A stretch of DNA of 63,987 nt, filler included, from an uncultured Methanosarcinales archaeon (GCA_964397315.1; 4 parts of 4 records of this genome joined end to end with filler, not necessarily neighbours in it); one strand, 5' to 3'; shown: positions 37,666 through 56,078, numbered from the whole stretch's first letter. Made by a program: numbers and translations. Notes: generated from the sequence alone by a model not told the origin.

Positions 37666-38841
37666 TCAGAACAACTCAGCATTATCCTCAAGCGCCTTTA
37701 TGCCGGGCAGCTCCTTTCCCTCAAGGAATTCTATTGAGGCCCCCCCTCCTGTGCTGACATGAGTCATCTTGTCCTCAAGACCCCACTTCCTTATTGCCTC
37801 TGCTGTGTCTCCTCCGCAGATAACAACTGTCTTGTCAGCCCCTGCAAGGTACTTTGCAATCTCTCTTGTTCCCTTTGAGAACTTCTCTATCTCAAAAACA
37901 CCCATGGGGCCGTTCCATATGACAGTCTTTGCCTCAGAGAGCTTTTTCTTGAAATAGCCTATTGACTCAGGCCCTATGTCGAGGCCCATCATCTCAAAGG
38001 GGATGTCTGCCACTCCCGCCACTTTTGTCTCAGCATCCTCTGACTTCCTTTCCGCCACTACAAAGTCGCTGGGCAGGATTATCTTGTCCTCATAATCAGC
38101 GAGAAGGTATTTTGATGAGTAAACATGCTCCTCGTCAACCTTGCTCTTTCCCACCTCAAATCCCTTTGACTTTAGAAAGGTAAAGACTACAGCCCCTCCG
38201 AATATGGTGAAGTCAAGCCTCTCTATCATGTTCTTCATGAGGTCAAGCTTTCCCTCCACTTTTGCAAAGCCGAACAGGGCTGCGGCAGGCCTCTCAGGAT
38301 GGAGTATGCTTTTCAGGTGCTTTATCTCATACTCAAGGAGCTTTCCCGCGCAGGAGGGCAGGAATCTAGGCACGCCAACTACAGAGGCGTGCGCCCTGTG
38401 GGATGTTCCGAAAGCATCATTCACGAATATCTCGCCGTACTTTGACAGGGCCTTTGCAAACTCCTCATTGTTCTCCTTCTCTGCCTTGTGGAACCTCAGG
38501 TTTTCAAGAAGGATTATCCTTTCATCCTCAGGAGGTGTCTCGTCAATGCAGTCATTAAGCTTTAGCAGCGGCTTTCCCAGAAGCTCTGAAAGCCTGTCAG
38601 CCACCCTGTCCATCTTCAGCCCGTCAACAATCTCTCCCTTCGGCCTTCCCAGATGGCTCATCAGGACTATCTGCTTTGCTCCCTTGTCAAGCAGGTGCTT
38701 TATTGTGGGCAGTGTCTTTCTTATCTTCCAGTCATCCAGGACATTACCCTTGTCACCAAGGGGCACGTTGAAGTCGCACCTTACAAGCACCTTCTTGTCT
38801 TTGAAATCAAAATCCTCAAGTACCTTGTGCATTTCGCTCAC
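37666..38841 (-). CDS. pgk: Phosphoglycerate kinase
   Basis: DFNVP, SHLGRP, LENLRF, NDAFG..HRAHAS, WNGPMG, STGGGA. Confidence 0.97.
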   Translation of the reverse strand: MSEMHKVLEDFDFKDKKVLVRCDFNVPLGDKGNVLDDWKIRKTLPTIKHLLDKGAKQIVLMSHLGRPKGEIVDGLKMDRVADRLSELLGKPLLKLNDCIDETPPEDERIILLENLRFHKAEKENNEEFAKALSKYGEIFVNDAFGTSHRAHASVVGVPRFLPSCAGKLLEYEIKHLKSILHPERPAAALFGFAKVEGKLDLMKNMIERLDFTIFGGAVVFTFLKSKGFEVGKSKVDEEHVYSSKYLLADYEDKIILPSDFVVAERKSEDAETKVAGVADIPFEMMGLDIGPESIGYFKKKLSEAKTVIWNGPMGVFEIEKFSKGTREIAKYLAGADKTVVICGGDTAEAIRKWGLEDKMTHVSTGGGASIEFLEGKELPGIKALEDNAELF

Positions 38842-38912
38842 CTCTTTTTGGGTTTATGTGCTGCAAAACCCCTTTGTTTATTTATTTTTTGGAATATATC
38901 CTTGATGATGGA

Positions 38913-39073
38913 GGGACATTCGCTTTGCTCAGTCCCACGAACTGCCTGTAATCTTAAAATAATGACCCCAAGGGGATTCTGAACGAGCGTCACCACTACC
39001 CTCGGAAGCGAAGCTGGTGGGACATTCGCTTTGCTCAGTCCCACGAACTGCCTGTAATCTTAAAATAATGACC
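38913..39073. repeat. tRNA-associated hairpin mini-element with duplicated tRNA-Arg 3' end (~55-bp tandem duplication)
   Basis: GGGACATTCGCTTTGCTCAGTCCC...AATAATGACC occurs twice; core homologous to 54752-54819. Confidence 0.7.
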
Positions 39074-39242
39074 NNNNNNNNNNNNNNNNNNNNNNNNNNN
39101 NNNNNNNNNNNNNNNNNNNNNNNNNNNNNNNNNNNNNNNNNNNNNNNNNNNNNNNNNNNNNNNNNNNNNNNNNCCAAGGGGATTCGAACCCCTACCGACC
39201 GGGCCGAAACCGGTAGCACTATCCTGGTTATGCTATGGGGCC
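39069..39242 (-). tRNA. tRNA-Arg(TCG); 3' acceptor strand interrupted by a 100-N scaffold gap (39074-39173)
   Basis: GGCCCCA..., ACCGG-TTTCGGC-CCGGT anticodon arm, GGTTCGAATCC; GACC|CCAAGGGG joins seamlessly across the gap. Confidence 0.85.
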
Positions 39243-39427
39243 TTGTGTTTTCGGGTTGTATTTTTTTAGTGGTGCGTACGGTTGAGTGTGGCGAAACCGT
39301 ACCCGCTTTTGCGTGCCAGCTGGGCGTAACCAGCTGTTCTGGTTATGCTATGGGGCCTTTGGTGTTTATAAAACCATCTCTTTTATAAATATAGCCCTAA
39401 GATAAAGCCTCATTCATCTGCAAAGAA

Positions 39428-39589
39428 TCACTCTTCCTTCTTCTTTAATGGGTGCTCTCCCTGGCCGACCCAGATGTAATCATCTTCAGGAGACCTGGGT
39501 TTCCTGTGCCTTGTGATATAATAGTAGGCTCCGAAGCCTATGAGCCCCAGCGCAACCAATACAATTATTACTATCACATAAGGATTCAA
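39428..39589 (-). CDS. Small single-TM protein (53 aa)
   Basis: GGGGTGA RBS, TTG start, hydrophobic N-terminus. Confidence 0.5.
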   Translation of the reverse strand: MNPYVIVIIVLVALGLIGFGAYYYITRHRKPRSPEDDYIWVGQGEHPLKKKEE

Positions 39590-40326: not shown

Positions 40327-40743
40327 ATGGCAGGATTTTTTTCAAAAATAAGAGAGAGAATGTCAGGTTCTGATGACTTTGAGATACCCAATGAGATTGA
40401 TGAGGGTTATGTGGAGCTGTCCACAGAGGGTGATGAGGGCTCCCAGTCAAAGATAACAGTCAGGCCTTTTGTGCTTGAGGACTTCGGAGACGTGAAGAAC
40501 GTGCTTGACTCCCTCAGGGAAGGGTATACTGTAGCTCTTGTTAACATAAAGCCTCTCAAGGACAAGGATCTTGTTGAGCTGAAGAGGGCTGTCAGCAAGC
40601 TCAAGAAGACTGCTGACGCTATTGAGGGTGACATTGCAGGATTCGGAGAGGACTGGATATGCCTCTGCCCTTCTTTTGCGCAGATACACAGGGAACAGCA
40701 GAAGAAGAAGGAAGTGCAGGACGTTAATCCCGAAGAGTTCTGA
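40327..40743 (+). CDS. sepF: Cell division protein SepF
   Basis: L..G...LVNI..L, ELKRA..KLK....I.GDIAG. Confidence 0.85.
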   Translation: MAGFFSKIRERMSGSDDFEIPNEIDEGYVELSTEGDEGSQSKITVRPFVLEDFGDVKNVLDSLREGYTVALVNIKPLKDKDLVELKRAVSKLKKTADAIEGDIAGFGEDWICLCPSFAQIHREQQKKKEVQDVNPEEF

Positions 40744-40884: not shown

Positions 40885-40984
40885 NNNNNNNNNNNNNNNN
40901 NNNNNNNNNNNNNNNNNNNNNNNNNNNNTTAATTAATTAANNNNNNNNNNNNNNNNNNNNNNNNNNNNNNNNNNNNNNNNNNNN
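40885..40984. other. Assembly junction (N + TTAATTAATTAA linker)
   Basis: N run with the linker at 40929-40940. Confidence 0.97.
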
Positions 40985-41039
40985 TCACGAGGAGAATTTT
41001 TTCGAGGAAATTGAACTTCCCTTAAGCCCGATGTTAGTT
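40985..41039 (+). repeat. attC-like site 1 (right half only, truncated by the contig end)
   Basis: ...CTTAAGCCCGAT-GTTAGTT, same right end as sites 5 and 6. Confidence 0.7.
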
Positions 41040-41088
41040 GCAATTATTTTCAAGGGCTAAAAATGAGAAGGGGGGACAATTTCAAGAA

Positions 41089-41718
41089 TTACTTTATTGC
41101 TTCAATATCAAATGCTTTCATTTCATCAAAATATATAGTTGGTTTGATCTTAAATTGAGAAAATTTAGATAATATTTGTTTAATTTCTTTTTTAGAAAAA
41201 TAGTGATGAGCCATATGTGGATCATCTTCCATGCCGCCTAAAAAAGTATTTGCTTCAATTTCCTTACCTCTTCCATAACTTGCATCTTTAATTGACATAA
41301 ACTCAGTTACGAGCATGCCTTTAGGTTTAAGAATTCTATATATTTCATCAACTGCTTCTTGATTATCTTTTAATAATCCATGACTTAGAACAAAAATACA
41401 AATTATTGCATCAAAATAATTGTCTGGATAAAAAGTGTGCTTTATATCTGCTACTTTGTAATTAATAGTGCGTAAGCCAATTTTTTCAGCTTTCTTTTTA
41501 GTAATTGATATGCCTGTTTTAGATGCATCTAATGCATAAACTAAAAAGCCTTCTTGAGCAAAGAATAAAGTATTTCTACCAGTCCCAGATCCTAAATCTA
41601 AAATCTTTTTGTATTTATGTTCTCTAAAAATCTGAGCATACTTTTTAATTCGGGGTATTATCTTAGGATACAAATCCCCATGCTTTTTATAAACTATTTC
41701 CCAACCTTCTTCTTTCAT
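41089..41718 (-). CDS. Class I SAM-dependent methyltransferase (cassette 1)
   Basis: ILDLGSGTGR, DAS, FDAI, IYRILKP.G. Confidence 0.9.
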   Translation of the reverse strand: MKEEGWEIVYKKHGDLYPKIIPRIKKYAQIFREHKYKKILDLGSGTGRNTLFFAQEGFLVYALDASKTGISITKKKAEKIGLRTINYKVADIKHTFYPDNYFDAIICIFVLSHGLLKDNQEAVDEIYRILKPKGMLVTEFMSIKDASYGRGKEIEANTFLGGMEDDPHMAHHYFSKKEIKQILSKFSQFKIKPTIYFDEMKAFDIEAIK

Positions 41719-41906
41719 ATAAAATGTTTAATATTTAAAACATTAATAAATGTTACTAAAATTCTTGAAATGAAATTGTCCCCCTGTTATTGTTGGTTCT
41801 TGATAGTCGCTATTCGCTCTTTTGATAGAACACCCTTGAAAATAACTCTTCGGGATTTTTTGCTTCGCAAAAATCGTTGCACTATCCCTCGGTCACTTCG
41901 TGACGC

Positions 41907-42030
41907 AACTAACAGCGATTAAAACTCCGCTCACTTGCAGTTCGCTACGCCCTTCGGTTTTGTGGGTTGCCTCAAAACCTACGGGGAAATAAATCCTTCG
42001 GATTTACTTCTCTTAATCGCGATGTTAGTT
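41907..42030 (+). repeat. attC-like site 2 (124 bp)
   Basis: AACTAAC-AGCGATTAA ... TTAATCGC-GAT-GTTAGTT paired ends with internal CTTCG hairpins. Confidence 0.85.
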
Positions 42031-42162
42031 TCAATTTTTTCGGGGGCTATAAAGATAATGGGGCACACTCTTGATAGTGCTACGCACTCTATTCTTTAAC
42101 TAAATGAATTTGGGAAATCTAGAAGAAATACTAAAAAAATAGTGGGCTAAAATAAGAAGAAA

Positions 42163-42630
42163 TTAGGACAATTTCTCTTTATCCAATAATTGCTTTAACT
42201 TTTGTAATGCTACTTTATTATTCTCCCATTTTAACAAGCTTAATGCTTTATCAAATCGAACCCATTCAAAAGTTTCATGTTCTGGATAAATGTTATTATG
42301 AATAGATATTGATAAGTTTGGATTAACTTCAAAACCAAACACATATTCAGTAATAGTGGGTATTGGTTCTCCTGTAAGATAATGTTTGTTTATCTCAAAG
42401 AGATCCACATTTTCAATGACTCTAGTAATATTTTCTTTTTTAATGCTTGCTTCTTCTAATAGTTCTCTATATGCCGCGTCTAGTTTTGAGTTATCGCTTT
42501 TTTCTAACCCGCCACATGGAGGTTGCCAGAATCCACCTTTTTCTGGAATCCTTTTTAATAAAAGGAACTCAAAAAAACCTTTATTTTTTCTAAACACAAT
42601 ACATTCTATTCGCGTAGTTCTCATTTTCAT
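42163..42630 (-). CDS. NUDIX hydrolase (NudB/dATP pyrophosphohydrolase-like; cassette 2)
   Basis: LLLKR, FWQ..GG.E.....AA.RELLEE Nudix box, EH..FEW. Confidence 0.9.
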   Translation of the reverse strand: MKMRTTRIECIVFRKNKGFFEFLLLKRIPEKGGFWQPPCGGLEKSDNSKLDAAYRELLEEASIKKENITRVIENVDLFEINKHYLTGEPIPTITEYVFGFEVNPNLSISIHNNIYPEHETFEWVRFDKALSLLKWENNKVALQKLKQLLDKEKLS

Positions 42631-43826
42631 TTAACTCCTGACAATTTACAATATGTACTCCCTTCTGGATTTAATTGCCCATATAATTCCATTTCTAATG
42701 TAAATCCTGAACATTTTTTTCCATAATCAATACATTGATCACATCTTTCTTTAAATTGCTTGCTATTTTGTCTAATTGTCTGAAGTCTTTTGTTATATCT
42801 CCAAACATTTAAGAGAGAATACCTTTCAGAAACAATATTTCCTAGAACCAATTCATCTCTTAATTGTGGATTTACATATAATACACAACCTCCAGCATAT
42901 AAATCCCCATTTGACATTATATTAAATCTAGTAAATCCATCTGAACCTCCTTCCATTAAACCAAATTGTTCTGAATTAATGGAGTTTTCTCTCAAACTAC
43001 TGCCTCTGGTCCTAACTTCTAAATTAGGATATTCAGCTTTCAATTCATCCACTTTAATCATAAAAACGCTTAATTCATCATAATCTAAGAGTTTATCTTT
43101 TATTTTTGAAGCTCTACCAATCGGTCTTGGATGAAAGAAACTTATATCATAACAAAATTCATTCGCAAAATCTAAAAGTTTTCTTACGTCTTCTTCATTA
43201 ATTAAAGAAGTAACTACGGAATTTATGGTAACTCTACAACCAGCATAACTTAATTGCTTAATTGATTCTGTTGCTTTGTCAAATGTTCCTTTGCCTCTAA
43301 TATAATTATTTCCCTCCCTAAAACCATCAAGACTAATACTAACTTCATCTGGATTTATTTCAATTAATTTTTCTAAGGTATTTTGGGTATATAAACCATT
43401 TGAGTTTAATGAGATTGTTAATCCGATTTCTTTTGCTCGTTTTAATATTGTATCCCATCCTTCTTTAAGGGTTGGTTCACCTCCGCTAAAACGGACATCA
43501 AATACTGAGTCATTACTTAATCCTTCAATAACTTTTATTGATTGTTCTAAACTTAGTTCATCATTTAATGGAACCCCAGAATTATTTAGACAAGTCTTGC
43601 ACCGAAGATTACAGGCGGCAGTTAAATCAAAATAAACTCTTATCGGAGAATATATTATTGATGTGTCTTTAAAAAATGGCTGATTATCAAATTCGATTAT
43701 GGCGTTATTTTTCTTGAATTTTAAAAAATCTTCATTTAGTAAAAAGAAATGTTCAAAACTATTTGGATCAAATATGGTCTTTCCAAATGTTTCATTTCTG
43801 GATTTAACTTGCTTTTTTTCTTTCAT
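42627..43826 (-). CDS. Radical SAM protein with degenerate SPASM domain (cassette 2)
   Basis: CNLRCKTC, SGGEP, SLDG; C-terminal CDQC-x6-C. Confidence 0.9.
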   Translation of the reverse strand: MKEKKQVKSRNETFGKTIFDPNSFEHFFLLNEDFLKFKKNNAIIEFDNQPFFKDTSIIYSPIRVYFDLTAACNLRCKTCLNNSGVPLNDELSLEQSIKVIEGLSNDSVFDVRFSGGEPTLKEGWDTILKRAKEIGLTISLNSNGLYTQNTLEKLIEINPDEVSISLDGFREGNNYIRGKGTFDKATESIKQLSYAGCRVTINSVVTSLINEEDVRKLLDFANEFCYDISFFHPRPIGRASKIKDKLLDYDELSVFMIKVDELKAEYPNLEVRTRGSSLRENSINSEQFGLMEGGSDGFTRFNIMSNGDLYAGGCVLYVNPQLRDELVLGNIVSERYSLLNVWRYNKRLQTIRQNSKQFKERCDQCIDYGKKCSGFTLEMELYGQLNPEGSTYCKLSGVK

Positions 43827-44261
43827 TGAATGATGTTCTCATTTCTAAATAATTCCATTTCATATTCAAGTTCTTTTTTTTGATTTAGCCCTATGTATTG
43901 CATTTTTAACGATATACAATCCACTACTAGTTATATCTAAGCCTCTTCCATACCCATATCTTAAGGAATTTCTTGCACAATATTTTGGATTAGAGAATCT
44001 TCCAGACAATTCATAAAATCTTGCTATTGCGGATTCCCCTTTAATAAGTCCTAATTCGCATGGTGCTTCAAACATATACTCCATAAGAGCCGAATAATGC
44101 GATTGCCCAACATCAGAAGGATAAAATTTTGCCAATAATTCAGGATAAAACTCTAACACGTTTGTTTCCAATAATTCAAAATGATTAGCAATTTTAGATT
44201 TAATTTGTTCTCTTTTATTCCAACCATCTGGTTTTATTATAAATAAAGTTTTTTCTATCAT
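43823..44261 (-). pseudogene. ndk: Nucleoside diphosphate kinase-like, frameshifted in an A8 run near the 3' end
   Basis: TLFIIKPDG, S.R..YG, NAIH; removing one A gives SKKELEYEMELF...Q* with an ATGA overlap to the next gene. Confidence 0.75.
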
Positions 44262-44262
44262 T

Positions 44263-45456
44263 TTAATAAATACAATATGGATTTTTGTGTTCTGGATTTT
44301 TCTCTCTATAAAATTCCATTTCTATACTTGCTCCGGGACATTTTACATTCTTTTCGGGACATTTTAAACAAGATTCCTGTAATCTTAAACTTATTTCTCT
44401 AAATTCTTTTAATTTAGGAGAATTTCTCCAAATATCTAATAAGCTATAATCTTCTTCTTTGATATTACCTAAATAAAAATCAGGTCTCAAATGCGGAGTA
44501 TAACCTCCAGGCCAGATGGATCCATTAGGTAACAAATTAAACCTTGTAAAACCATCAGGACCTCCCATTTTTAATCCTACGCTCGATGTAACATCAGAAG
44601 ATATTGAATTAACTACCATAACTTTAGATCCATGTAAGATTCTCATCTGCGAATATTTCGGTTTAAGTTTTTCAATTTTTTCATCAAACTCATGTAACTC
44701 TTCGTAGGAAATTACCTGGTCTAAAATTCCAAGTGCTCTACCTGCTGTTCTCATATAAAAGAAATTGATTTCTTCAACAAATCTTCCAGCTAAGTCCAAA
44801 ATTTCTTCAAGATTGTTAGCAGCTCCTTTAGTTAAAACTGTGTTTATTCTTAAATGAGCGCCTTGTTTATGGAGATCTTCGAGTGTCTTAACAGTTCTTT
44901 CGTAGTTTCCTTTACCCCTTATATAATCATGAAAATCCTGACCTCCATCAATGCTAATAGTTATTTGTTCTAAATCCAAACTTGCTAATTGATCAATAGT
45001 TTTTTCAGGATTTCTATAAACTCCATTAGTGTTCAAAGATACAGAAAAACCCAAATCTTTTGCATAACTTAATATTTCAAACCAATCAGGTCTTGCAGTA
45101 ACTTCTCCCCCGCTAAATCTAATATCAAAAACATTGTCATTCCTTAACCCATCTAAAGTTTTTGTTATTTCTTCAGTAGTCATTTCATCAGATTTAGCTT
45201 TTCCAGACTGATTAAAACAGGTTTTGCATCTAAGAAGACAAGCAGAAGTCAACTCAAAATAAATTCTTATAGGAGAATAAATTATATCATCTGGTGCTTC
45301 GGACAAATCCGCAGTCCATTTTTCAAAATCTTCAACCTCTATATCTGAAAATTTCAAATCATCTGCACTTGATAAAAATTTATGGCGCATTCTAACTTTA
45401 TCAAAGAGAGTATATCCAAACTTTTCATCACGTAAAATAAACCTTTTAGCACTCAT
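44263..45456 (-). CDS. Radical SAM protein with degenerate SPASM domain (cassette 2; paralog of 42627-43826)
   Basis: CLLRCKTC, SGGE, SIDG; C-terminal CLKC-x6-C. Confidence 0.9.
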   Translation of the reverse strand: MSAKRFILRDEKFGYTLFDKVRMRHKFLSSADDLKFSDIEVEDFEKWTADLSEAPDDIIYSPIRIYFELTSACLLRCKTCFNQSGKAKSDEMTTEEITKTLDGLRNDNVFDIRFSGGEVTARPDWFEILSYAKDLGFSVSLNTNGVYRNPEKTIDQLASLDLEQITISIDGGQDFHDYIRGKGNYERTVKTLEDLHKQGAHLRINTVLTKGAANNLEEILDLAGRFVEEINFFYMRTAGRALGILDQVISYEELHEFDEKIEKLKPKYSQMRILHGSKVMVVNSISSDVTSSVGLKMGGPDGFTRFNLLPNGSIWPGGYTPHLRPDFYLGNIKEEDYSLLDIWRNSPKLKEFREISLRLQESCLKCPEKNVKCPGASIEMEFYREKNPEHKNPYCIY

Positions 45457-45710
45457 TACTACTAATAAATAACAACAAATATATAAAGATTTTGTTTAAA
45501 AATATAAATAATTTCAGGAATAGAAATTAACTACTCTTCTTCGCCCCAAAACCCCTACGAATAGCAGTAAAGATTTCCCCAATTATAGATGTAAAATAAC
45601 GAGTGTGCCCCTTGATGTATGTTCTAGATGGTCGCTATTCGCTCCAAAGATTGAACGCCCCCGAAAAAACTTTTCGGACGAAATTTTCCCACACTTCGTA
45701 TGGGAAAAGA

Positions 45711-45840
45711 AACTAACAGGAATTTAACGGTTCGCAGGGTCGGCTTCGCCTAAAACGCCAAGCGTTTTCCTCTGCTCTCCCAAATTCAAAATTTGTGGGT
45801 TGCCTCAAATTTTGAACTTCGTTAAATTCCTCAGTTATAT
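45711..45840 (+). repeat. attC-like site 3 (130 bp)
   Basis: AACTAAC-AGGAATTTAACG ... CGTTAAATTCCTCA-GTTATAT. Confidence 0.85.
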
Positions 45841-45902
45841 TCAATTATTTTTCAGCCCCTAAATAGAAATCTTTATGAACTTTAATATATAATCTTATTA
45901 TT

Positions 45903-46163
45903 ATGAGTGATTTTGAAAAAAGGCTTAATGCAATTGAGCAAAGAAACAAGAAAGTTGAATCAGATAAAGCTTGGGAAACAAGCTGGTCAAGAAAAATAAT
46001 AATAGCCGTTTTAACTTACGCCACAATAGTATTATTTTTCTTTGTTGCTCAATTGCCAAAACCATTCATTAATTCTATTGTTCCAACAGCTGGTTTTGTT
46101 CTTTCAACATTATCCTTGCCTTTTTTCAAAAAAATATGGTTGAAGTATGGGGCTAAAAAATAA
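45903..46163 (+). CDS. Small two-TM membrane protein (cassette 3)
   Basis: RN.KVE.DKAWETSW.R followed by 2 TMs; own TATA box. Confidence 0.8.
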   Translation: MSDFEKRLNAIEQRNKKVESDKAWETSWSRKIIIAVLTYATIVLFFFVAQLPKPFINSIVPTAGFVLSTLSLPFFKKIWLKYGAKK

Positions 46164-46214
46164 CTCTGAAATTTCCCTTCGGGACGTTGCACTAAAATTC
46201 AGCCCTAACGGGGA

Positions 46215-46240
46215 ATATAACAGGAATTCCGAGGTTATGC
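46215..46240 (+). repeat. Minimal attC-like site 4 (26 bp)
   Basis: ATATAAC-AGGAATTCCGAG-GTTATGC. Confidence 0.7.
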
Positions 46241-46378
46241 TCAATTTTGATTTTTCTGGATTGTTTTTGAAAGATTCTTGACGGCAGCAACAACAAGGGA
46301 TTCATACACGGTCAGCCTTCGCTTCGCTCAGTCTGCCCTATTCGCAAAGGAAAAAACCCCACTGCGCAGGGTGAAAGA

Positions 46379-46490
46379 GCATAACAGGGCTTAAACGGTT
46401 CGAAACGACCGCCTCCGGCTATTTTGCCAAGCAAAATTCGTTCCTCCCCCAAATTTGCTACGCAAATCTCGCTTACGCCCGATGTTATGC
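46379..46490 (+). repeat. attC-like site 5 (112 bp)
   Basis: GCATAAC-AGGGCTTAA ... TTACGCCCGAT-GTTATGC. Confidence 0.85.
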
Positions 46491-46564
46491 TCAATTCAGA
46501 AAAAATGGTGGATGTAATTTGCGATTAGATAGTTTTTTATAATAGCTTTGTATTAATTCATTAA

Positions 46565-46945
46565 ATGGATACAAACCAACCCCAAAATCTCACCAAAAAA
46601 ACAGCAATGAAAAGATTCCTAATAATTTTAGTTGGCACAATTATCTTTGCTTTAGTATTTGTATATTTACAACATGGCAGAATTCAAAGTACTATTTTAA
46701 TTGCTTTTGCAATCGTCGTTCCTATCATGATAATAAGTGCAATAGTTGGTTTTAAGTATCGCGATTCGATTGCAAATCTTAAAAATAAGTTATGGTACTT
46801 CCTTCTAATTATTGGAATACTGATGGCAATAATCAATTTAGTATTGGTTTTTTTGGAAGGAAGCAATTTTAATTATTATCTTCAGATTGGGATTGGTTTG
46901 ATGTTTGTAATTTACTCTATCTACAAGATAAAAAACACCCCATAA
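46565..46945 (+). CDS. Four-TM membrane protein (cassette 5)
   Basis: 126 aa, four hydrophobic segments, TTTTTATAATA promoter. Confidence 0.8.
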   Translation: MDTNQPQNLTKKTAMKRFLIILVGTIIFALVFVYLQHGRIQSTILIAFAIVVPIMIISAIVGFKYRDSIANLKNKLWYFLLIIGILMAIINLVLVFLEGSNFNYYLQIGIGLMFVIYSIYKIKNTP

Positions 46946-47014
46946 TAACATTTTTTCTGAACTCGAAATTTTTGCCTCCGGCATCGTTGCACTAAAATTC
47001 AGCCCTAACGGAGA

Positions 47015-47039
47015 GCATAACAGGGCCCCGATGTTAGTT
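47015..47039 (+). repeat. Minimal attC-like site 6 (25 bp)
   Basis: GCATAAC-AGGGCCCCGAT-GTTAGTT. Confidence 0.7.
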
Positions 47040-47058
47040 GTAATTTGTAATCTAAAAC

Positions 47059-47550
47059 CTAGCTATAATCATAATGTAATTTTTCAAGAAGAGTATATAA
47101 TTTCCTATCCACAGAAATGCATAATTCTAGTTTATCATCAAAAGACATAGAAGAATATCCTTCGGTTTCTGGAAAAGGATTGATTGTTAAATCATTTCTA
47201 TTTAGAACTATATTCAATCTCATTAATCCAACTCCTGCATGAGTTCCCCAACAATTCAATCCCAATTTATTATGTCTTTTATGCCAATCATATTCTTCTT
47301 CTGAAAAAGAATATCTTAAATTATGCATTTCTTGATGAACATTAGTTCCCATATCAATTGGATAAGTTCCTAACAAATAATATTCTAATCTAGAAACTAT
47401 TTCTGTTGCGTTTCCATTAATTATTCCCGCTACATTAGGAACTTCTCTATATGTTGGTTCAAAAAACTGAAACGAATATTTTTCTTCAAAATGTTTAATC
47501 CATTTTGCATGTGCAGTTTTTTGTTCTGGAACTAATGTCTTCATATTCAT
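47059..47550 (-). CDS. Hypothetical protein (cassette 6)
   Basis: 163-aa AT-rich ORF filling the cassette, own TATA box. Confidence 0.75.
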   Translation of the reverse strand: MNMKTLVPEQKTAHAKWIKHFEEKYSFQFFEPTYREVPNVAGIINGNATEIVSRLEYYLLGTYPIDMGTNVHQEMHNLRYSFSEEEYDWHKRHNKLGLNCWGTHAGVGLMRLNIVLNRNDLTINPFPETEGYSSMSFDDKLELCISVDRKLYTLLEKLHYDYS

Positions 47551-47670
47551 ATATTACGGAAATTATATGCTCATTATAAAGCTTTTGACGGTTTTAGATT
47601 ACAAACTCTTCGGGATTTTTTCACTTCGTGAAAAACCACTTGCAGTTATCCCTCGGTCACTTCGTGACAC

Positions 47671-47695
47671 AACTAACAGGAATCCGATGTTACTC
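47671..47695 (+). repeat. Minimal attC-like site 7 (25 bp), array terminus
   Basis: AACTAAC-AGGAATCCGAT-GTTACTC; GC content returns to host level immediately after. Confidence 0.7.
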
Positions 47696-47696
47696 C

Positions 47697-48152
47697 TCAA
47701 AGGAATCTGCTCATTATGCTGAGGTCCTCACCATCCACGAAGTGGCTCCTGAGAAGTCCTTCCTCTTCAAATCCTGTAGAGGTGTAGAATTTTTTGTACT
47801 CCTGGAATGTCAGCGCGTGCAGCTTTCTTATGCCTCTCTTCCTGGAAATCTCAATGATGCTCTCAAGAATCTCCCTTCCATTACCTTTCCCCCTGTGCCG
47901 GGGCCACACAACCAGGTCTCTTATCTCTGCTGTGCCGCTCACATCAGTGATGAGAGAGACAGTCCCTATCCTTTCCCCTCCTTTCATGTAGATAAAGAAC
48001 TCATCATTATTTATCTCTTTCTTGTGCCCCTGCTTAAGGTAATCCTCAGCCCACTTTTTGTCATACTGCGGAGCTCCCCTCTCCCTCCAGTACTCTGCAA
48101 GAAGCTCTGCAGCTTCGCTCTCATCCTCAGGTTTAAGTCTTTCCAGGGCCAT
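47697..48152 (-). CDS. GNAT family acetyltransferase
   Basis: LVV.P.HRGKG.G, FY...GF..EG. Confidence 0.9.
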   Translation of the reverse strand: MALERLKPEDESEAAELLAEYWRERGAPQYDKKWAEDYLKQGHKKEINNDEFFIYMKGGERIGTVSLITDVSGTAEIRDLVVWPRHRGKGNGREILESIIEISRKRGIRKLHALTFQEYKKFYTSTGFEEEGLLRSHFVDGEDLSIMSRFL

Positions 48153-48238
48153 GCAAAACCCTTAAAAAGACTCATATAAAAATATAGCGGACAAGACCTT
48201 CCGATATATTTATTAAACATTCCCCCTCCTGCTGTAAT

Positions 48239-49396
48239 ATGCGCATGCCCGACTACAGGGGAGGGAGCCTTGTGAACCTGATGAGTTCGATCTCCCGGGC
48301 TCTTGGAGGGAAATCAAGTTACAGCCAGCTGAAGCAGCTGCCTTCAAGCAAGTTAAAGAACTCAAGGAATATCATCCTGATTGTCCTGGACGGCATTGGT
48401 TATGAGTATATTAAAGAGAAAGGCAAGAAAACCGTTTTTCAGGAACATCTTAAAGGAGTTATCACATCTGTATTCCCCTCAACTACAGCCTCTGCAATAA
48501 CGACCATCCTGTCAGGATTAGCACCACAACAACACGCCATAACAGGCTGGTTTGTGCACCTCAAGGAGATAGGGGCTGTGACCGCAATCCTGCCTTTTGT
48601 TACAAGGGCAGGGGGCCAATCTCTCGCCAAAGCAGGTGTAAGGAAGAGAGACATTATGGATTTCAAAAGATTTGAAGACGGTCTTAAGGCTGCCTCCTGT
48701 AATGTGACCACGCAGAACATAAAGAGGGATGAATTAAAAGACGGCACCAGCAAAAGAACAAGCGTTCTGGGTTATACAAATTTAAGGGGGTTCTTCTCGC
48801 AAATAAAAAAAGCAGTCAGGTCCAGCAATAAGAGAAAATTTGTTTACGCCTACTGGCCAGGGTTTGACGCAATAGCCCACCAGGAAGGGGTAAGGAGCAG
48901 AAAGGCAGAGGATCATTTCAGGCAGATCAGTAAAGAGCTGGGCTCATTTGTTGAGGGCATGAGGGGCACGAACACAACCATTATTATAACCTCTGATCAT
49001 GGGATGATTGACACCAGCGGTAAAAGAACAATCCGCTTGGAAGACCACCCCGGGCTAAAAGAATGTTTGACACTTCCCCTCTGCGGAGAGCCCCGCGCAG
49101 CGTATTGCTATGTTCATCCGTCCAAGACCAAGCAGTTTGAGAGGTATGTAAGAAAAAAGCTTGGGAAATGCTGCCGTCTGTACAGGAGCGAGGAACTCGT
49201 CAAAAGGAACTTTTTTGGGTTATACAAGAGGAATCCCAGGCTGAACGACCGCATTGGAGACTACACAATAATCATGAAGCATGATTATATCATAAAGGAC
49301 AGGCTTCCCGGAGAGGAGGAGAGGATTCTAGCGGGCAATCATGGAGGGCTCAGCAAAGAGGAGATGCTTGTTCCTCTTGCAGTAATCAATCTATAA
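48239..49396 (+). CDS. Alkaline phosphatase superfamily / nucleotide pyrophosphatase
   Basis: VLDGIG, FPSTT, D..AH, SDHG, HGG.S..EM.VP. Confidence 0.9.
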   Translation: MRMPDYRGGSLVNLMSSISRALGGKSSYSQLKQLPSSKLKNSRNIILIVLDGIGYEYIKEKGKKTVFQEHLKGVITSVFPSTTASAITTILSGLAPQQHAITGWFVHLKEIGAVTAILPFVTRAGGQSLAKAGVRKRDIMDFKRFEDGLKAASCNVTTQNIKRDELKDGTSKRTSVLGYTNLRGFFSQIKKAVRSSNKRKFVYAYWPGFDAIAHQEGVRSRKAEDHFRQISKELGSFVEGMRGTNTTIIITSDHGMIDTSGKRTIRLEDHPGLKECLTLPLCGEPRAAYCYVHPSKTKQFERYVRKKLGKCCRLYRSEELVKRNFFGLYKRNPRLNDRIGDYTIIMKHDYIIKDRLPGEEERILAGNHGGLSKEEMLVPLAVINL

Positions 49397-49455
49397 CAAG
49401 GGTTAACACGCCTCTTATGCAGCAGTCCTGAGAGACCAGGACCATAACACACAGC

Positions 49456-50721
49456 TCATGTCCCCTCCTGCCAGCTGGCCATGTACTTCTTCTGCTCCTC
49501 TGTCATCTCATCAATCCTCAGCCCCATTGCCTCAAGCTGCAGCCCTGCTATTGTGTCATCAATCTCCTCTGGAAGCTGAATAACCTCCACAGGCAGATTT
49601 CCCTTGTTTTTAACGCAGTACTCAACAGCAAGAGCCTGGCCGCAGAAAGATGTGCTCATTACCTCAGATGGGTGGCCTTCTGCTGCTGCAAGGTTCACGA
49701 GCCTTCCCTCGCCTGCAACAAACAGCTTTTTTCCGTCAACAATGTACTCGTCAAGGAAGGGCCTCACTTTTCTTTTTCCTGAAGCAAGCTCACCAAGCCC
49801 TTTTAGGTCTATCTCTATGTCAAAATGGCCTGAATTCGCGAGTATAGCCCCGTCTTTCATCTGCTTCATGTGCTCTGTCCTTATGGCATGCTTGTTTCCT
49901 GTCAGGGTGCAGAATATGTCTCCTATCCTGCATGCATCCTCCATCTTCATAACCCTGAATCCGTCATATGCTGCCTGCAGGGCGCAGAAATTATCCACTT
50001 CAGTGACTACGACATTCGCGCCCATGCCTTTTGCCCTCATTGCAAAGCCTTTGCCGCAGCTTCCATAGCCTGCAACCACCACTGTTTTTCCGGCAAACAG
50101 CACATTTGAGGCTCTTATTATGCCGTCAACAGTTGACTGGCCTGTGCCGTAGTAATTGTCTAAAAGGTGCTTTGTCTTGTTGTCATTGACCGCTATCATG
50201 GGGTATTTCAGGGCATTGTCCTTCTGCATTGCCTTGAGCCTTATTATTCCTGTTGTTGTTTCCTCACACCCCCCTATTATCTCAGGTATGAGGTCAGTGT
50301 GCTTCTGGTGTATCTCTGACACAAGGTCGCAGCCGTCATCTATTGTTATGTTGGGCCTGAATGATATCACATTACTGAGGTACCTGTAATAGTCCTCGTC
50401 TGTCTCTCCCTTGTATGCCCATACACTGACTCCATCCTCTGCAAGGGCTGCTGCCACATCATCCTGTGTTGAGAGGGGGTTGCAGCCTGTTATTGCCACA
50501 GAGGCGCCCCCTGCAATAAGTGTCCTTACAAGAACTGCTGTCTCTTTTGTAACATGCAGTGCCAATCCCACCTTCACTCCCTCAAGGGGCTTTTCCTGCT
50601 CAAACCTCTTCTTTATCTCCATTAATGCCCCCATGTGGCTCTCTGCTATCTCAATGTTCATCCTGCCCTGTCCTGCAATGCTCATGTCCTTTACCTCATA
50701 ATTGTCTCCAGTATCCATCAT
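49456..50721 (-). CDS. ahcY: Adenosylhomocysteinase
   Basis: CNPLSTQD, EETTTG, DN.YGTGQS, GRLVNL..A.GHP. Confidence 0.97.
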   Translation of the reverse strand: MMDTGDNYEVKDMSIAGQGRMNIEIAESHMGALMEIKKRFEQEKPLEGVKVGLALHVTKETAVLVRTLIAGGASVAITGCNPLSTQDDVAAALAEDGVSVWAYKGETDEDYYRYLSNVISFRPNITIDDGCDLVSEIHQKHTDLIPEIIGGCEETTTGIIRLKAMQKDNALKYPMIAVNDNKTKHLLDNYYGTGQSTVDGIIRASNVLFAGKTVVVAGYGSCGKGFAMRAKGMGANVVVTEVDNFCALQAAYDGFRVMKMEDACRIGDIFCTLTGNKHAIRTEHMKQMKDGAILANSGHFDIEIDLKGLGELASGKRKVRPFLDEYIVDGKKLFVAGEGRLVNLAAAEGHPSEVMSTSFCGQALAVEYCVKNKGNLPVEVIQLPEEIDDTIAGLQLEAMGLRIDEMTEEQKKYMASWQEGT

Positions 50722-50973
50722 AACCACCTTCTGCGCCAGGAATACCGCACTATTATATAATTTTCCAGGCTATTACCGGACATTGTCCATCAAATCTTCC
50801 AATGTTCCGGACAAAAAACAAAATATTTAAATATATGCTGGACATACCCTCTGAAAGGAGACAGAACCATTGAGCCATACTTCTTCATGGCTCTGAGGGG
50901 TGGTAGGTTCATATGACACTCATCGCCATATGATACTTGTTGGCGCAAGTAATCATCCCTTGGAGCCTAAAAA

Positions 50974-51405
50974 ATGAAACTTGACGGAAAAGACCATGCC
51001 ATCATATCCCTACTTAAGGAGAACTCCAGGCTGTCAGTCAGGGAAATCGGCAAGAAAACAGGCCTCAGGCCGTCCACGGTGCATGACAGGATAAGAAAGC
51101 TGGTCAAGAACAACATAATAGAAAAGTTCACCCTCAAGCTGAACAACAGGGCTGTGGGAGAGAATTTCATTGTTTTCATGCTCGTCGCAGGAAAGCCAAC
51201 AGAGTATGTGGGAGAGACAATGCTGGGCCACAGGAACATAAAGGAGGTGTTCGGCATAACAGGGGAGTATGACATGATATTCAAGCTTAAGTTCAGGGAT
51301 GTTGAGGAGTTCAACGATTTTGTGATAAAATTCAGGAAGCAGAACAGGAACGTGACAAAAACAATGACAATGGTCGCCACAGCCACGCTCAAGGAGGAAT
51401 TGTGA
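50974..51405 (+). CDS. Lrp/AsnC family transcriptional regulator
   Basis: LD..D..I...L..N.R HTH; GITGEYD RAM domain. Confidence 0.92.
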   Translation: MKLDGKDHAIISLLKENSRLSVREIGKKTGLRPSTVHDRIRKLVKNNIIEKFTLKLNNRAVGENFIVFMLVAGKPTEYVGETMLGHRNIKEVFGITGEYDMIFKLKFRDVEEFNDFVIKFRKQNRNVTKTMTMVATATLKEEL

Positions 51406-51529
51406 GAGAAAACTACAATGCAAGACTGGAGCTGACATACAAAAGGCCTGGCAAAGATACTCGGCAGGGAAGAGACAACAAAGGGAATCAGGAAAAAATA
51501 TAAAAAGAGAAGAGCATGGCAGGATAAGA

Positions 51530-52099
51530 ATGAACAAGGGCTTAAGAGCAGCAGCAATAGCAGGCATCGTCTATCTTGTGTTATTCCTGCCCCTCCTCTT
51601 TCTTAAATCCATGGGCAAGGTGGGAGGAGGCATACCTAACGGAATGCTTGTGGTTTTTCTTGCTATCGCGCTTGCAGAGCTTGCAGCCGGAGTGGTATTC
51701 ATAAGAGGGTTTGTAATCATGGGAGGAAAGCTCAAAAGGGATTTCCTGAGGATAATGGCGTGGATAGCGCTTGTAATAACAACCCTCCTGTCAGGCTATG
51801 ACATGATAAGCATACTTCACCAGGAAGCAGCAAGCCCCACAGCAGGGATAATCATGCTTTTCATTTTTGGAGTTGTGGGGGTGTTATTCGGGGCCTCCCT
51901 GCTGCCTCTCAAGAAAAGATTCGGAAAGCTCGCCACTTCCGCGGGAGTAATGGAGATCATCTCCGGCGCAGCTGCAGTGACCATACTCCTTTCAATAATA
52001 ACAATCCTGCTTTACATACCTTTGGGCATAGTTAAGGTTATTCTTCTTTTCAGGGCCTCTGAAAAGTTCAAGCAACAAAAATCCGCAGCTCACGGTTAA
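51530..52099 (+). CDS. Multi-pass membrane protein
   Basis: About six TM segments. Confidence 0.75.
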   Translation: MNKGLRAAAIAGIVYLVLFLPLLFLKSMGKVGGGIPNGMLVVFLAIALAELAAGVVFIRGFVIMGGKLKRDFLRIMAWIALVITTLLSGYDMISILHQEAASPTAGIIMLFIFGVVGVLFGASLLPLKKRFGKLATSAGVMEIISGAAAVTILLSIITILLYIPLGIVKVILLFRASEKFKQQKSAAHG

Positions 52100-52190
52100 T
52101 AGGCTAAAGGTTTCAAAAAGCTAAGCTTTTTGGAACACCAAAAATTGAAGATTTTTGATTCCCACGGCTTTAAGCAGCCGCTTTTGGCAG

Positions 52191-52260
52191 GCGGATTTCT
52201 GGAACTTTTAAAAGCCTTCATCTCCGCACCAAAGTGCGGAGCTTCCGGCTTATTAAAAGT
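52191..52260. repeat. 70-bp REP-like palindromic repeat, copy 1
   Basis: 68/70 identical to 56005-56074; CTCCGCAC-NAAA-GTGCGGAG hairpin. Confidence 0.8.
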
Positions 52261-52291
52261 GACTGCCGCCTTCCCCCTATGATAGAGCCTA

Positions 52292-54265
52292 CTAAAAGAG
52301 GTGCCTGAAGAAAAGAAGTATCCTCTGGATAAAAGAGACATCCACAAGGGAAATCTCAATCTTTTCAGAATCAGAATATTTCCTGCCCCTTGCATCCTCA
52401 TAGGAGAGGTTCATGTGTATTGGGTTTTTTCCCTCCTGCAATCCGCTTCCCTTAAGCTCCAGCTCGTATTCCTTCCCCTCCTCAAGCATGCCATAATCGT
52501 ATTCCCTTTCAAGCCCTGCACCATAAACCCCCACTAGGGCATTATGGGCTGGAGCTTCAGAGGCCTTGTCCAGGCTGAACCTGACACTAAACTCATCCCC
52601 ATACCCGACCTCTGCCGGAAACTCAACATCACCTATGCTGAACTCAGGAGATGGAATGCCCTCAAAGGCTATCTCCCTGCTCTTTGAAACCCTCTCATTA
52701 CTGATGTAAAGAGAGAGCTCATTCCTTCCCTTCTCTACATTCTCTATTGTGAATGTGAAATTCTTCTGCTGAGTTATGCCGAGATGAGAGGCAGCGCACC
52801 TGCCGGCAAGGCATATGCTAAGATTCCTGAAGAATATATTGCCCACATTTCTTATGCTGCATTCTATGGAAGGGGACTCGTAAGTGTAATACCTGTCTGA
52901 ATAATTAGTGCAGGACACCTCAAGGTTGCCAGCGTAGGCTTTCTCATGCCTTTTCCTTGATGCAGATGCTGACTTCCGAGCCTCCTCAAGCGAGATCATG
53001 CTCCCCTCCCCCATTGAGCTGAATGAGCCCCCTGAGGTTGCATTGTCAAGCGTGAAAACCTCATAGGGAAATGTGTATATGTAATCCCTGTCAAGGCCCC
53101 CCTGAACCTTTACGATCCAGCTTGCCTCCTTCACCTCACCTGGCCTGAGAAGGACATGCTTCTTTTCCGCGCCAAGAATGTCAAGCCTGCTGGTCCTGGA
53201 TATCCTAATGTCCTTGGAAACATAATAATCCTTAAGGTTGGTTATCCTGGCTTTTATCACATTATAGGAGCTGAAGCCAGTCTCATCCTCCATAACATCT
53301 GATTCTATTGAAACCTCATGGCCTTTCTCATCCCCTATCTCAAGCACACCTATCTGCGTCTCAAGATCATTAAGATCAAGGGATACACCCCCCTCTGCCT
53401 TCCACTGGTAGGTTGAGGTTATCTTCTCAGCGTCACTTGATATTGAAGTCACAATGTGAGTGGGGTCCACCCAGCCATACTCGCCGTATGTCACGTCATA
53501 AGGCACCCAGCCGTAACCAGGAAAATAGACTTCAGCCCAGCCATGAGGCCCCCAGTTGTCCGCTATCTGGGGGGAATTAGTGTATGATATTCCAGCCACG
53601 AACCTCGCAGGTATGCCCAGGGATCTCAACATTGATATGAAAAGAGAGGTTATCTCATCACAAACGCCTTCCCTGTTCTCAAGCACCCAGCTTGACTTCT
53701 GGGAAGCCTCAGCAGTGATGGTGGAGAAATTATAAGATATATTTGTGTTCACCCACACTGCAATGCTGTCCACAACATCCATAAGGTCATCCTTTCCTGA
53801 GGCTATATCAGAGGCTGTGTTTATTATGTTCTCATCTATGTCTATTATCTCAGCGGGCAGAGTGTATTTTCTTGCCTCATCAGGAATGTTTTCCAGGGGG
53901 AATCTTATTTTCCCTGACACCCTCACTGGATCATTCTCCACCTTCACGATGGAATCCATGTCTATGAAAAGCCTTGACTGGCTGGGCTTGTCCCACCTGA
54001 AGACTGCTGTCTCACCAATGCTTTCTGGCTCAGGGGAGAAATCAGTCTTTCTGATGGCCTGCCCTGCTGTTTCCTTGGGAAAAAAGGATATGTTGGCTGT
54101 TATGAAGTCAATCTTTGGAGAGGGGCTTAAGGAGACCACCTCCAGCTCGGTTGACAGCCTAACATCAAGAAGCATATGCCCGCTGTTGTAGAATCTGGAT
54201 TCCTCAATGCCGTGGCAGACAGGCAGTATAAGAAGCATGAGTATGAGGAGGATTGCTTTTTTCAT
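52292..54265 (-). CDS. Secreted transglutaminase-like protein
   Basis: Signal peptide from MKKAIL; GVCDE, HGWAEVY, W.PYD.T Cys-His-Asp triad. Confidence 0.88.
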   Translation of the reverse strand: MKKAILLILMLLILPVCHGIEESRFYNSGHMLLDVRLSTELEVVSLSPSPKIDFITANISFFPKETAGQAIRKTDFSPEPESIGETAVFRWDKPSQSRLFIDMDSIVKVENDPVRVSGKIRFPLENIPDEARKYTLPAEIIDIDENIINTASDIASGKDDLMDVVDSIAVWVNTNISYNFSTITAEASQKSSWVLENREGVCDEITSLFISMLRSLGIPARFVAGISYTNSPQIADNWGPHGWAEVYFPGYGWVPYDVTYGEYGWVDPTHIVTSISSDAEKITSTYQWKAEGGVSLDLNDLETQIGVLEIGDEKGHEVSIESDVMEDETGFSSYNVIKARITNLKDYYVSKDIRISRTSRLDILGAEKKHVLLRPGEVKEASWIVKVQGGLDRDYIYTFPYEVFTLDNATSGGSFSSMGEGSMISLEEARKSASASRKRHEKAYAGNLEVSCTNYSDRYYTYESPSIECSIRNVGNIFFRNLSICLAGRCAASHLGITQQKNFTFTIENVEKGRNELSLYISNERVSKSREIAFEGIPSPEFSIGDVEFPAEVGYGDEFSVRFSLDKASEAPAHNALVGVYGAGLEREYDYGMLEEGKEYELELKGSGLQEGKNPIHMNLSYEDARGRKYSDSEKIEISLVDVSFIQRILLFFRHLF

Positions 54266-54289
54266 CTTACCACTTTTTGAATGGAAAAA

Positions 54290-54414
54290 CGCCGCGGCTG
54301 GGACTTTCAGGCGCAGGCCCCGCCTAACGCTCTTTGAACCCAGATATCCCGAAGGAAACCAGATTTCTGCGCATGATAGCAATCTGGCGCAGTACCAGGT
54401 TGTGCCACCGCGGC
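54290..54414 (-). tRNA. tRNA-Ser(GCT) with two introns (37/38, 54365-54376; T-loop 59/60, 54304-54332)
   Basis: GCCGCGG/CCGCGGC acceptor stem, CCAGA/TCTGG anticodon stem, variable arm TCC-TTCG-GGA, BHB central helices TTGC/GCAG and TTCA/TGAA. Confidence 0.88.
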
Positions 54415-54638
54415 AATAAATTGCTTTGCTCTGAAGCCGCTTAAGCATTACCAGCAGCTATTCGGGCCATTCCGAGCAAAGCGAGGATATGGCCCTTGAT
54501 GGCCGGGTCAAGGAAGAAGACCCTTGAGCTGGTTGTGCCACCGCGGCAATAAGGCTTCTGCTTGCAACCCTATTTTTATAGTTTTCCCTTAAAAAAACCA
54601 AAAAGATTTATAAATGGGTTGCTGTTTGGCCATGGTAT

Positions 54639-54729
54639 AGCGAGGTGGGGCAGTCAGGAGTGCCCGACGGGCTCATAATCCTCTTGTTGGGAGACCCGTA
54701 GGTCGGTGGTTCAAATCCACCCCTCGCTA
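54639..54729 (+). tRNA. Initiator tRNA-Met(CAT) with 16-nt intron (54678-54693)
   Basis: A1:T72 pair, GGG/CCC anticodon stem, BHB CTCA/TGGG. Confidence 0.92.
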
Positions 54730-54751
54730 TGCTAATGCTCTCAGATTTTTT

Positions 54752-54840
54752 CGTGGGACTAAAGCTTTAGCTTTATGTCCCACCGGGTTCGCTTCCGAGG
54801 GTAGTGGTGACGCTCTTCTAAATCCACCCCTCGCTATGCT
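54752..54840 (+). repeat. tRNA-associated hairpin mini-element followed by a 21-bp duplication of the tRNA-iMet 3' end
   Basis: GTGGGAC...GTCCCAC-TTCGCTTCCGAGGGTAGTGGTGACGCTC shared with 38983-39044 (reverse complement); 54820-54840 = 54713-54733. Confidence 0.8.
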
Positions 54841-54873
54841 CACCCTCTAGTGTTTTAAAAGACTCTTCCAGAA

Positions 54874-55179
54874 TCAGCTTTTCTTGAATCTTTTCCTTAT
54901 CTGGTTCTCCAGCTTGTTATAGACCTTGTGAAGTGTTCTTGCAATGTCCCAGTCCTCATACTCAGCCTCAAAAATCCTGGTGGGGGCGGAAACCTTTGCC
55001 TTTATTAGATATCTCTTCTGCCTGCCCTCTGAGTCAAATGTTTTCACGTGAAGCTCTACAGAGGTTATATTCTGGAGCTCCCTCTGAATCTTTCCGTAAT
55101 ACTCAGAGGACAGCTTGTCCACCACCCGCTTTTCTTCAGGGCTTAACTCATTAACTCCCTTGTATTGTATCTGCTCCAT
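54874..55179 (-). CDS. Standalone HPF/RaiA-like ribosome hibernation domain protein
   Basis: Fold pattern LHVK...G...RY.I...V, WD....L..V..KLE.QI. Confidence 0.6.
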   Translation of the reverse strand: MEQIQYKGVNELSPEEKRVVDKLSSEYYGKIQRELQNITSVELHVKTFDSEGRQKRYLIKAKVSAPTRIFEAEYEDWDIARTLHKVYNKLENQIRKRFKKS

Positions 55180-56074: not shown

Positions 56075-56078
56075 AACA

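Follow-up and report, generated by a model that had tools for sequence, protein, structure and literature searches.

Three very short junctions in a low-GC gene cassette array are genuine cassette ends of a chromosomal integron-like array in an archaeal genome. They are probably attC sites that were once long and have suffered an internal deletion, so that the distal cassettes are locked in place.

Results

Location and host of the array

The window, meaning the whole 63,987-base stretch of DNA that was analyzed, joins contigs C21, C22, C23, and C59 of one genome (1.47 Mb, 61 contigs, 93% complete). The contigs are separated by N runs with TTAATTAATTAA (20824–20923, 40885–40984, and 60808–60907); these linkers are artificial and adjacency across them is meaningless. 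The cassette array and its three short sites lie within C23 (window 40985–60807). The array (40985–47691) has a GC content of 31%, against 46% for the archaeal contig. The first 6.7 kb of C23 range from 29 to 37% and the remaining window from 42 to 52%, with the switch exactly at short site 3. The left side of the array is incomplete, beginning at the contig end at 40985. The host is archaeal, on the evidence of a SepF gene at window 40327–40743, and the nearest named relative of the recombinase described below, at 71% identity, belongs to a record of Candidatus Woesearchaeota. Judged by its genes rather than by a marker phylogeny, the host is probably a DPANN-type (Woesearchaeota-like) archaeon. 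Elsewhere in the window, a direct repeat of ~58 nt lies on both sides of a 100-N gap (38908–39380), and near it are one tRNA-like 3' half and a tRNA-like 5' end that is present twice (GGCCCCATAGCATAACCAG, – strand). No tRNA was called by ARAGORN in 38700–39500, and these tRNA-like pieces may represent a split or disrupted tRNA or an integration scar.

The short sites are true cassette junctions

A preliminary description of this DNA reported three AAC…GTT junctions with 11–12 nt between the cores; direct reading and a script both located them at the positions reported. Short site 1 (46213–46246, + strand) has its AAC at 46219–46221 and its GTT at 46234–46236, with AGGAATTCCGAG (12 nt) between. 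It consists of the R'' arm GAATATAA, CAGGAA joined to TTCCGAGG (14 nt from TAA to TTA), and the R' arm TTATGCTCAATT. In short site 2 (47013–47045, + strand), AAC at 47019–47021 and GTT at 47033–47035 enclose AGGGCCCCGAT (11 nt), and the R'' arm GAGCATAA is followed by CAGGGC+CCCGATG (13 nt) and the R' arm TTAGTTGTAATT. Short site 3 (47669–47700, + strand) forms the array end; AAC at 47675–47677 and GTT at 47689–47691 enclose AGGAATCCGAT (11 nt), and the R'' arm ACAACTAA and CAGGAA+TCCGATG (13 nt) are followed by TTACTCCTC. The latter is host DNA, from which the GC content climbs, and a GNAT gene (47697–48152, – strand) ends 5 nt past the site. From AAC through GTT inclusive, the three sites measure 17–18 bp. 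The pattern TAACAG-N7–10-GTTA matched three times in the 63,987-base window, always on the + strand and only at the short sites, against a chance expectation of 0.35 (SD 0.59); three matches were reached in none of 100 shuffles.

With the crossover taken as G|TTA, the array resolves into six complete cassettes extending from 41034 to 47689. All cassettes (6/6) follow one rule: reverse-complementing the 9 nt up to and including AAC at the right end gives exactly the G and first 8 nt at the left end. This rule holds alike for the three cassettes that end in short sites. Opening a circle at G|TT should leave just such 9/9 complementarity, and because the short sites obey the rule, they were assigned as true cassette junctions. 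The array begins with the 3' end of a truncated long attC-like site (40985–41033, + strand; family D1/D4), which is cut by the contig start and reads ..CTTAAGCCCGATG before the crossover. Cassette 1 (41034–42024, 991 bp; all cassettes are on the + strand) contains a methyltransferase ORF (41089–41718, – strand; Pfam PF08241) and ends in a long site (R'' 9-mer 41905–41913, 110 nt from AAC to GTT, GTT 42024–42026). Cassette 2 (42025–45834, 3810 bp) contains four – strand ORFs (NUDIX, radical SAM/SPASM, NDK-like, and radical SAM/SPASM) and also ends in a long site (R'' 9-mer 45709–45717, 116 nt from AAC to GTT); this 3.8-kb cassette thus holds a four-gene operon, and its two radical SAM proteins are paralogues with 40% identity. 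Cassette 3 (45835–46234, 400 bp) carries an 86-aa membrane-like ORF (45903–46163), a 3' module (~46162–46212), and short site 1. Cassette 4 (46235–46484, 250 bp) ends in a long site (R'' 9-mer 46377–46385, 98 nt from AAC to GTT) and no plausible ORF was found within 46235–46484; its outer arms (TTATGCTC / GAGCATAA) are identical to those of cassette 5. The latter (46485–47033, 549 bp; family D3) carries a 126-aa membrane-like ORF (46565–46945), a 3' module (~46957–47012), and short site 2. Cassette 6 (47034–47689, 656 bp; families D7 and D16) contains a 163-aa ORF (47059–47550, – strand), a type 2 module (47604–47668), and short site 3. Three of the four junctions farthest from the presumed attI are short, and the three nearer ones are long.

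A conserved module of 50–65 nt lies directly before the outer arm, and its orientation follows the site and not the ORF. Type 1 precedes short sites 1 and 2 (46162–46212 and 46957–47012), and type 2 precedes the cassette 1 long site and short site 3 (41844–41904 and 47604–47668). Over 33 nt, the module and R'' of short site 3 share 97% identity with 41883–41915, ahead of the cassette 1 long site (family D7). Rfam, searched with E values up to 1 over 40985–47800, gave nothing for the sites or the module; its matches to CRISPR-DR40 (E 0.15) and mir-365 (E 0.43) were attributed to chance. For the module, RNAalifold predicted no more than a 4-bp helix. A hand-drawn structure, comprising a 9-bp stem around a small hairpin and a second hairpin, is 91% paired with half of the columns fixed by the search pattern, and covariation is real in one pair (CG 46, UA 31).

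The short sites retain outer arms and lack the inner arms and hairpin

The long sites share a layout in which an outer arm ending in TAA is followed by 6 nt (CAGCGA, CAGGAA, or CAGGGC), an inner arm starting with TTAA or TTTAA, and a branched middle; the right half has an inner arm ending in TAA or AAG, 7–8 nt ending in G, and the outer arm TTA.....AATT. Among the 7–8-nt pieces of the sites, three end in GATG and one in CAG. In a folded bottom strand, the outer and inner arms would form two recombinase-binding duplexes. The short sites keep both outer arms and the adjoining 6 and 7–8 nt, and the inner arm pair and hairpin are absent; the 6-nt piece stands directly against the 7–8-nt piece, giving 13–14 nt from TAA to TTA. 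Folding of the bottom strands of the long sites in cassettes 1, 2, and 4 gave −28, −31.8, and −27.9 kcal/mol (z −5.75, −7.14, and −5.11), values equaled in 0/200 shuffles. The corresponding values for short sites 1, 2, and 3 were −1.7, −2.0, and −2.5 kcal/mol (z −0.17, 0.12, and 0.18), with 70–104 of 200 shuffles as good, and the short sites gave no fold even with 100 nt of flank. Compared with attC sites, all three have the AAC/GTT outer cores (R''/R') and the G|TT crossover, with the letters before AAC matching RYYYAAC only loosely. They lack a stable bottom-strand hairpin with unpaired bases and the inverted L''/L' pair (L box), which is present in the long sites of the same array, and they fall outside the attC length of ~57–141 bp given in PMC12901181.

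Short site 2 has 15 nt on the left (AGAGCATAACAGGGC) and 10 nt on the right (CCCGATGTTA) in common with the long site one cassette upstream (46377–46486). The closest parent form is this neighbor: the site at 47013–47035 equals it without the middle. The preliminary description had seen the short sites as long-site ends with the central stem gone and had quoted a site 5 starting with AACAGGGC and ending with GCCCGATGTT; both ends were matched (at 46383.. and ..46486), and the flanks held in common bear that view out. The comparison of 47013–47035 with 46377–46486 gives no direction by itself. A short form could be the older one, with long sites created when a palindromic hairpin element entered between its 6-nt and 8-nt pieces, and the inner part does have arm-like ends of its own (TTAA .. 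TTAA). This history is very doubtful, given that long sites are the large majority (49/74 and 52/75 loci among the matches listed; see below), that the inner stem runs on without a break from the retained 4 bp and changes along with them, that no target duplication was seen, and that folded sites with two arm pairs are a requirement of the known integron mechanism. We infer deletion rather than insertion.

Short forms are found in separate assemblies

Hairpins can cause skipping by a polymerase or an assembler, and the preliminary description had allowed that the short sites arose in this way during library preparation or assembly. The contigs available to examine this are all short-read-derived, and the check used Logan contigs, so minority long forms lie beyond its reach. 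In X1, the probable source sample, contigs corresponding to 46167–46446, 46417–47633, and 47606–48000 cross all three sites with 0 differences. In X3, from the same study as X1, contigs corresponding to 46167–46638 and 46842–47263 cross short sites 1 and 2 with 0 differences. In X2, a contig corresponding to 46552–47108 crosses short site 2 with 0 differences, and a 921-nt contig over 46162–46237 has 4 differences and 1 gap and therefore carries no long insert. The host junction of short site 3 is crossed in X1 alone, as X2 and X3 have no coverage of 47684–47850; coverage of this site comes from the probable source sample only. No inserted (longer) form of the three short sites was found among the Logan contigs of X1, X2, and X3. 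The preliminary description had proposed mapping raw or long reads across the junctions; at the level of contigs, the junctions show the short form and no longer sequence. The artefact reading was rejected because the contigs of several samples agree (0 differences at sites 1 and 2 apart from the 921-nt contig, and no insertion at the three places) and because the same array contains three hairpins of equal strength that were recovered whole. Other studies, with other assemblers, have the same short class in MAGs and metagenome contigs, and skipping is a scarcely credible source of the short sites.

Short sites recur in other genomes and metagenomes

In short sites 1 and 2, the outer arm is preceded by 50–60 nt of repeat sequence that has very high depth in all four metagenomes compared. 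A 20-mer from the type 1 module (one degenerate position) matches at least 110 stretches in GTDB species genomes of both domains; among the matches listed, the hosts are Woese-, Pace-, Nano-, and Aenigmarchaeota, Bathyarchaeia, many CPR phyla, and some otherwise-labelled bins. The distance from TAA to the next TTA-N5-AAT arm behind the module could be scored at 74 of the 110 loci listed. It was 5–8 nt at 12 of these, 13–15 nt at 5, 51–111 nt at 49, and >130 nt at 8, the last being regex misses, and no locus fell at 16–50 nt. By eye, the 36 unscored loci comprise long sites with odd R' arms, contig ends, two loci without R'', and several sites reduced to the left half. Such a left half alone is kept at several of the 110 module loci listed (e.g., L018, L035, L063, L072, and L098; by eye). 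A strict cassette rule, requiring both cassette ends in the locus and an exact 8-mer complement, returned 75 junctions on the module strand: 52 long, 6 of the 10–15-nt class (five of them 14–15 nt), 4 of the 6–7-nt class, and 13 unclear. The opposite (control) strand returned 4 "long", 7 unclear, and 0 short. Chaining of cassettes with one mismatch gave false matches in AT-rich DNA and was not used. In an array-end test, the cognate R'' of the next cassette was found for 4/31 long, 1/8 class B, and 1/5 class C junctions, with little flank available.

The cassettes with 13–15-nt sites carry genes unrelated to each other. Exact copies of the 25-mer at short site 1, with G or T as the fifth base from the end, were found in 7 JGI metagenome contigs and 2 MAGs in addition to the window, in a search by exact match that finds identical copies only. 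The flanks of these ten contexts, upstream and downstream, have nothing in common beyond one 34-nt match. The preliminary description had suggested a search for the same cassette with long and short sites, and a locus of this kind was found: L091 encodes an 86%-identical (aa) homologue of the 86-aa ORF of cassette 3, followed by the same module and then a long site. Its 6-nt piece is different, and it is thus not the direct parent of short site 1. In X4, from another study, a 3148-nt contig runs from the same module and AACAGGAATT into TAACGGTTCC.., i.e., a long site. The 13–15-nt pattern gave 5 matches in four long-read-type genomes, three being the first 20 nt of the commonest long site and the others at control level; no 13–15-nt short site was found in these four genomes. 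The complete chromosome of a Woesearchaeota member (L124; G001:C1:1040500-1060000) has a 17-kb island of ~30% GC that adjoins a homologue of the recombinase described below. All identifiable junctions of its array (at least 9) have 6 nt between the TAA and TTA arms in a dif-like layout, and there was no long site among the R'-arm matches in the island.

An Xer-like recombinase probably adjoins the array

A 4.7-kb contig outside the window (C53; L002 / L126) contains host genes, a gene for a 286-aa tyrosine recombinase, ..GCGCTTAA TAGGTG TTAGTTACAATT, and low-GC cassette DNA, and it ends in the same module repeat as the window array. The two lie on separate contigs, and the repeat shared at the end of C53 suggests that it is the integrase end of the window array. 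C53 has the integron arrangement of attI beside the integrase gene followed by cassettes. The recombinase aligns end to end with Pyrococcus abyssi XerA (4a8e; 146 bits) and in two pieces with VchIntIA (2a3v). The IntI-specific additional domain, a feature of integrons, is missing, as 20 aa stand where IntI4 has 65. Scores for the NCBIfam models TIGR02249 (175.8; cut-off 265) and NF040815 (203.5; cut-off 220) were below both cut-offs. The preliminary description was framed around a canonical integron, and that frame does not fit an array whose neighboring integrase is Xer-like and has no IntI-specific domain. Matches to the recombinase with E ≤ 1e-30 were found in 21 of 31 related genomes, with identities of 70% in one genome of the same genus, ~40% in two others, and 52–62% in six genomes drawn from the same family and from others; so scattered a distribution suggests an accessory gene. 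Homologues with 36–47% identity and without a large insertion lie within 2.5 kb of the module at 14 of the 110 loci listed, with 2 more partial, in DPANN and CPR genomes. Integron-calling tools that require the IntI additional domain would class such arrays as integrase-less (CALIN), and many DPANN/CPR arrays that standard tools would place there may adjoin an uncounted Xer-like integrase.

The four arms of the long site all end in TAA or start with TTA, as do Xer arms. An attI-like site (an arm ending in TTAA, 6 bp, and a TTA arm) is present upstream of the homologue at about 10 of 17 loci of relatives, and these sites have an inverted copy of the left arm upstream. Tyrosine recombinases use 6–8 bp between arms. 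Inverted arms at this spacing, the core feature of Xer/dif sites, are found in attI and in the 5–8-nt junctions elsewhere, and the short sites of the window have 13–14 bp.

These properties bear on whether the 13–15-nt sites are a working type, used by the Xer-like recombinase as double-stranded, attI-like partners. A weak pseudo-arm 8 bp from the strong outer arm at the crossover would act as its partner, allowing excision against a folded long site or insertion at a low rate. Consistent with this, the size class is narrow, six further 10–15-nt junctions elsewhere obey the cassette rule against 0 on the control strand, and the same 25-mer has unrelated flanks in 7 metagenome contigs, 2 MAGs, and the window. 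The recombinase is without the IntI domain by which the extrahelical bases of a folded attC are recognized, its attI is a plain double-stranded core whose TTAA-ending and TTA arms stand 6 bp apart, and every identifiable junction (at least 9) in the complete Woesearchaeota genome has 6 nt between arms. In addition, 11-bp attI remnants are functional with IntI1 (PMC12901181). Against it, the 13–14 bp between good arms are about twice the spacing that tyrosine recombinases use, the pseudo-arms differ among the three window sites, and deletion with a constant product together with survival of immobile cassettes also accounts for the recurrence, which was traced by an exact-match search limited to identical copies. 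We regard a working role as unlikely.

Discussion

Deletion scars are favored over minimal functional sites because the second arm pair and all folding are lost. The short sites have 13–14 bp between the remaining arms and no partner arm at 6–8 bp, and, judged from this anatomy, they appear defective by either the folded-strand or the ordinary double-strand route. Deletion is the best reading because of these defects by both routes, the existence of other decay forms, and the distal place of the sites in the array. In the proposed sequence of events, the stretch from the first to the second inner arm would be lost and the 6-nt and 7–8-nt pieces joined. The hairpin itself is the likely trigger, by replication bypass or by processing of the extruded hairpin. 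Deprived of inner arms and fold, the short sites would be poor or dead substrates for hairpin-dependent recombination. Cassette 3 could then leave only together with cassette 4, and cassettes 5 and 6 would be fixed at the old, integrase-distal end of the array.

Several features do not sit easily with simple decay. The sizes are discrete, with 16–50 nt empty among the 74 scorable loci, and random erosion would be expected to leave intermediates. The break points fall at the inner-arm borders and not at the longest microhomology: short site 2 (CAGGGC+CCCGATG) and its neighbor have no microhomology, and in a reconstruction of L074 a 2-nt repeat would have served although a TTAA repeat was available. 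The identical 25-mer at ten unrelated cassette ends points either to recurrence of the same deletion or to spread of the short site as such. Such regularity could come from a process governed by the recombinase while it is bound, or from selection that keeps a still-useful site, and no single tyrosine-recombinase reaction that yields the short-site product could be derived. On a broader and rather improbable interpretation, DPANN and CPR would share an unrecognised integron-like system with a short Xer-like recombinase that has no IntI domain, in which folded long, 13–15-nt, and 6-nt dif-like sites are all used; the short sites of the window would then be working double-stranded sites produced by recombinase-defined removal of the inner arms and hairpin.

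The distinction has consequences for integron biology. Should the short sites be dead, they would illustrate how an integron array becomes rigid, since hairpin-less cassettes cannot leave and pile up distally; this bears on the growth of sedentary arrays and on the formation of multi-gene cassettes. If they work, the hairpin and L box are unnecessary for this recombinase family, and the accepted requirement for attC recombination would have to change.

Likenesses to Xer/dif, IMEX, and pdif modules include a recombinase most like archaeal XerA and arms that end in TAA or start with TTA. As in dif, 6 bp separate the two arms of attI and of the 6-nt junctions. The short sites of the window differ in having 13–14 bp between arms, and the cassettes here follow one another head to tail next to the recombinase gene, which is an integron arrangement.

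With canonical attC sites and archaeal integrons, as presented in PMC9668308, the array has in common AAC..GTT inverted cores, crossover at G|TT, a folding bottom strand, and cassette arrays in DPANN; the same source reports attC types common to Archaea and Bacteria. The short sites depart from canonical attC in being without L boxes or fold and far below 57–141 bp. The six archaeal IntIs covered there carry the additional domain (Ghaly et al. 2022, PMC9668308), whereas the integrase beside this array is without the IntI-specific domain. The papers searched gave no description of such CPR/DPANN arrays, of the Xer-like integrase, or of a discrete hairpin-less site class; the supplementary attC and integron tables of PMC9668308 may list these arrays.

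Remnant sites have precedents in mobile integrons. The delta-attI-type cassettes described in PMC12901181 likewise have very short double-stranded remnants at the cassette end, which still recombine with IntI1, and by analogy they offer a precedent for activity without an attC hairpin. Those remnants derive from attI and not from attC; within the present family, the 6-nt junctions of other genomes are a closer analogue than the 13–14-nt class of the window. Truncated attC sites in which only R'' is recognisable are a described class of unusual cassettes (PMC12901181, citing Partridge 2009), and the same source reports both truncation of attC and fusion of cassettes in mobile integrons. In the class 1 integron form (Partridge 2009 type i, via PMC12901181), as is proposed here, most of attC is deleted, R'' and the crossover region are left, and the neighbors become one unit. 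The sites described here differ in that the loss is a defined unit, from inner arm to inner arm, leaving 13–15 nt; in that a single array has it three times, with further cases in other archaeal MAGs and in metagenome contigs; and in that it belongs to an archaeal platform with an integrase other than a canonical IntI.
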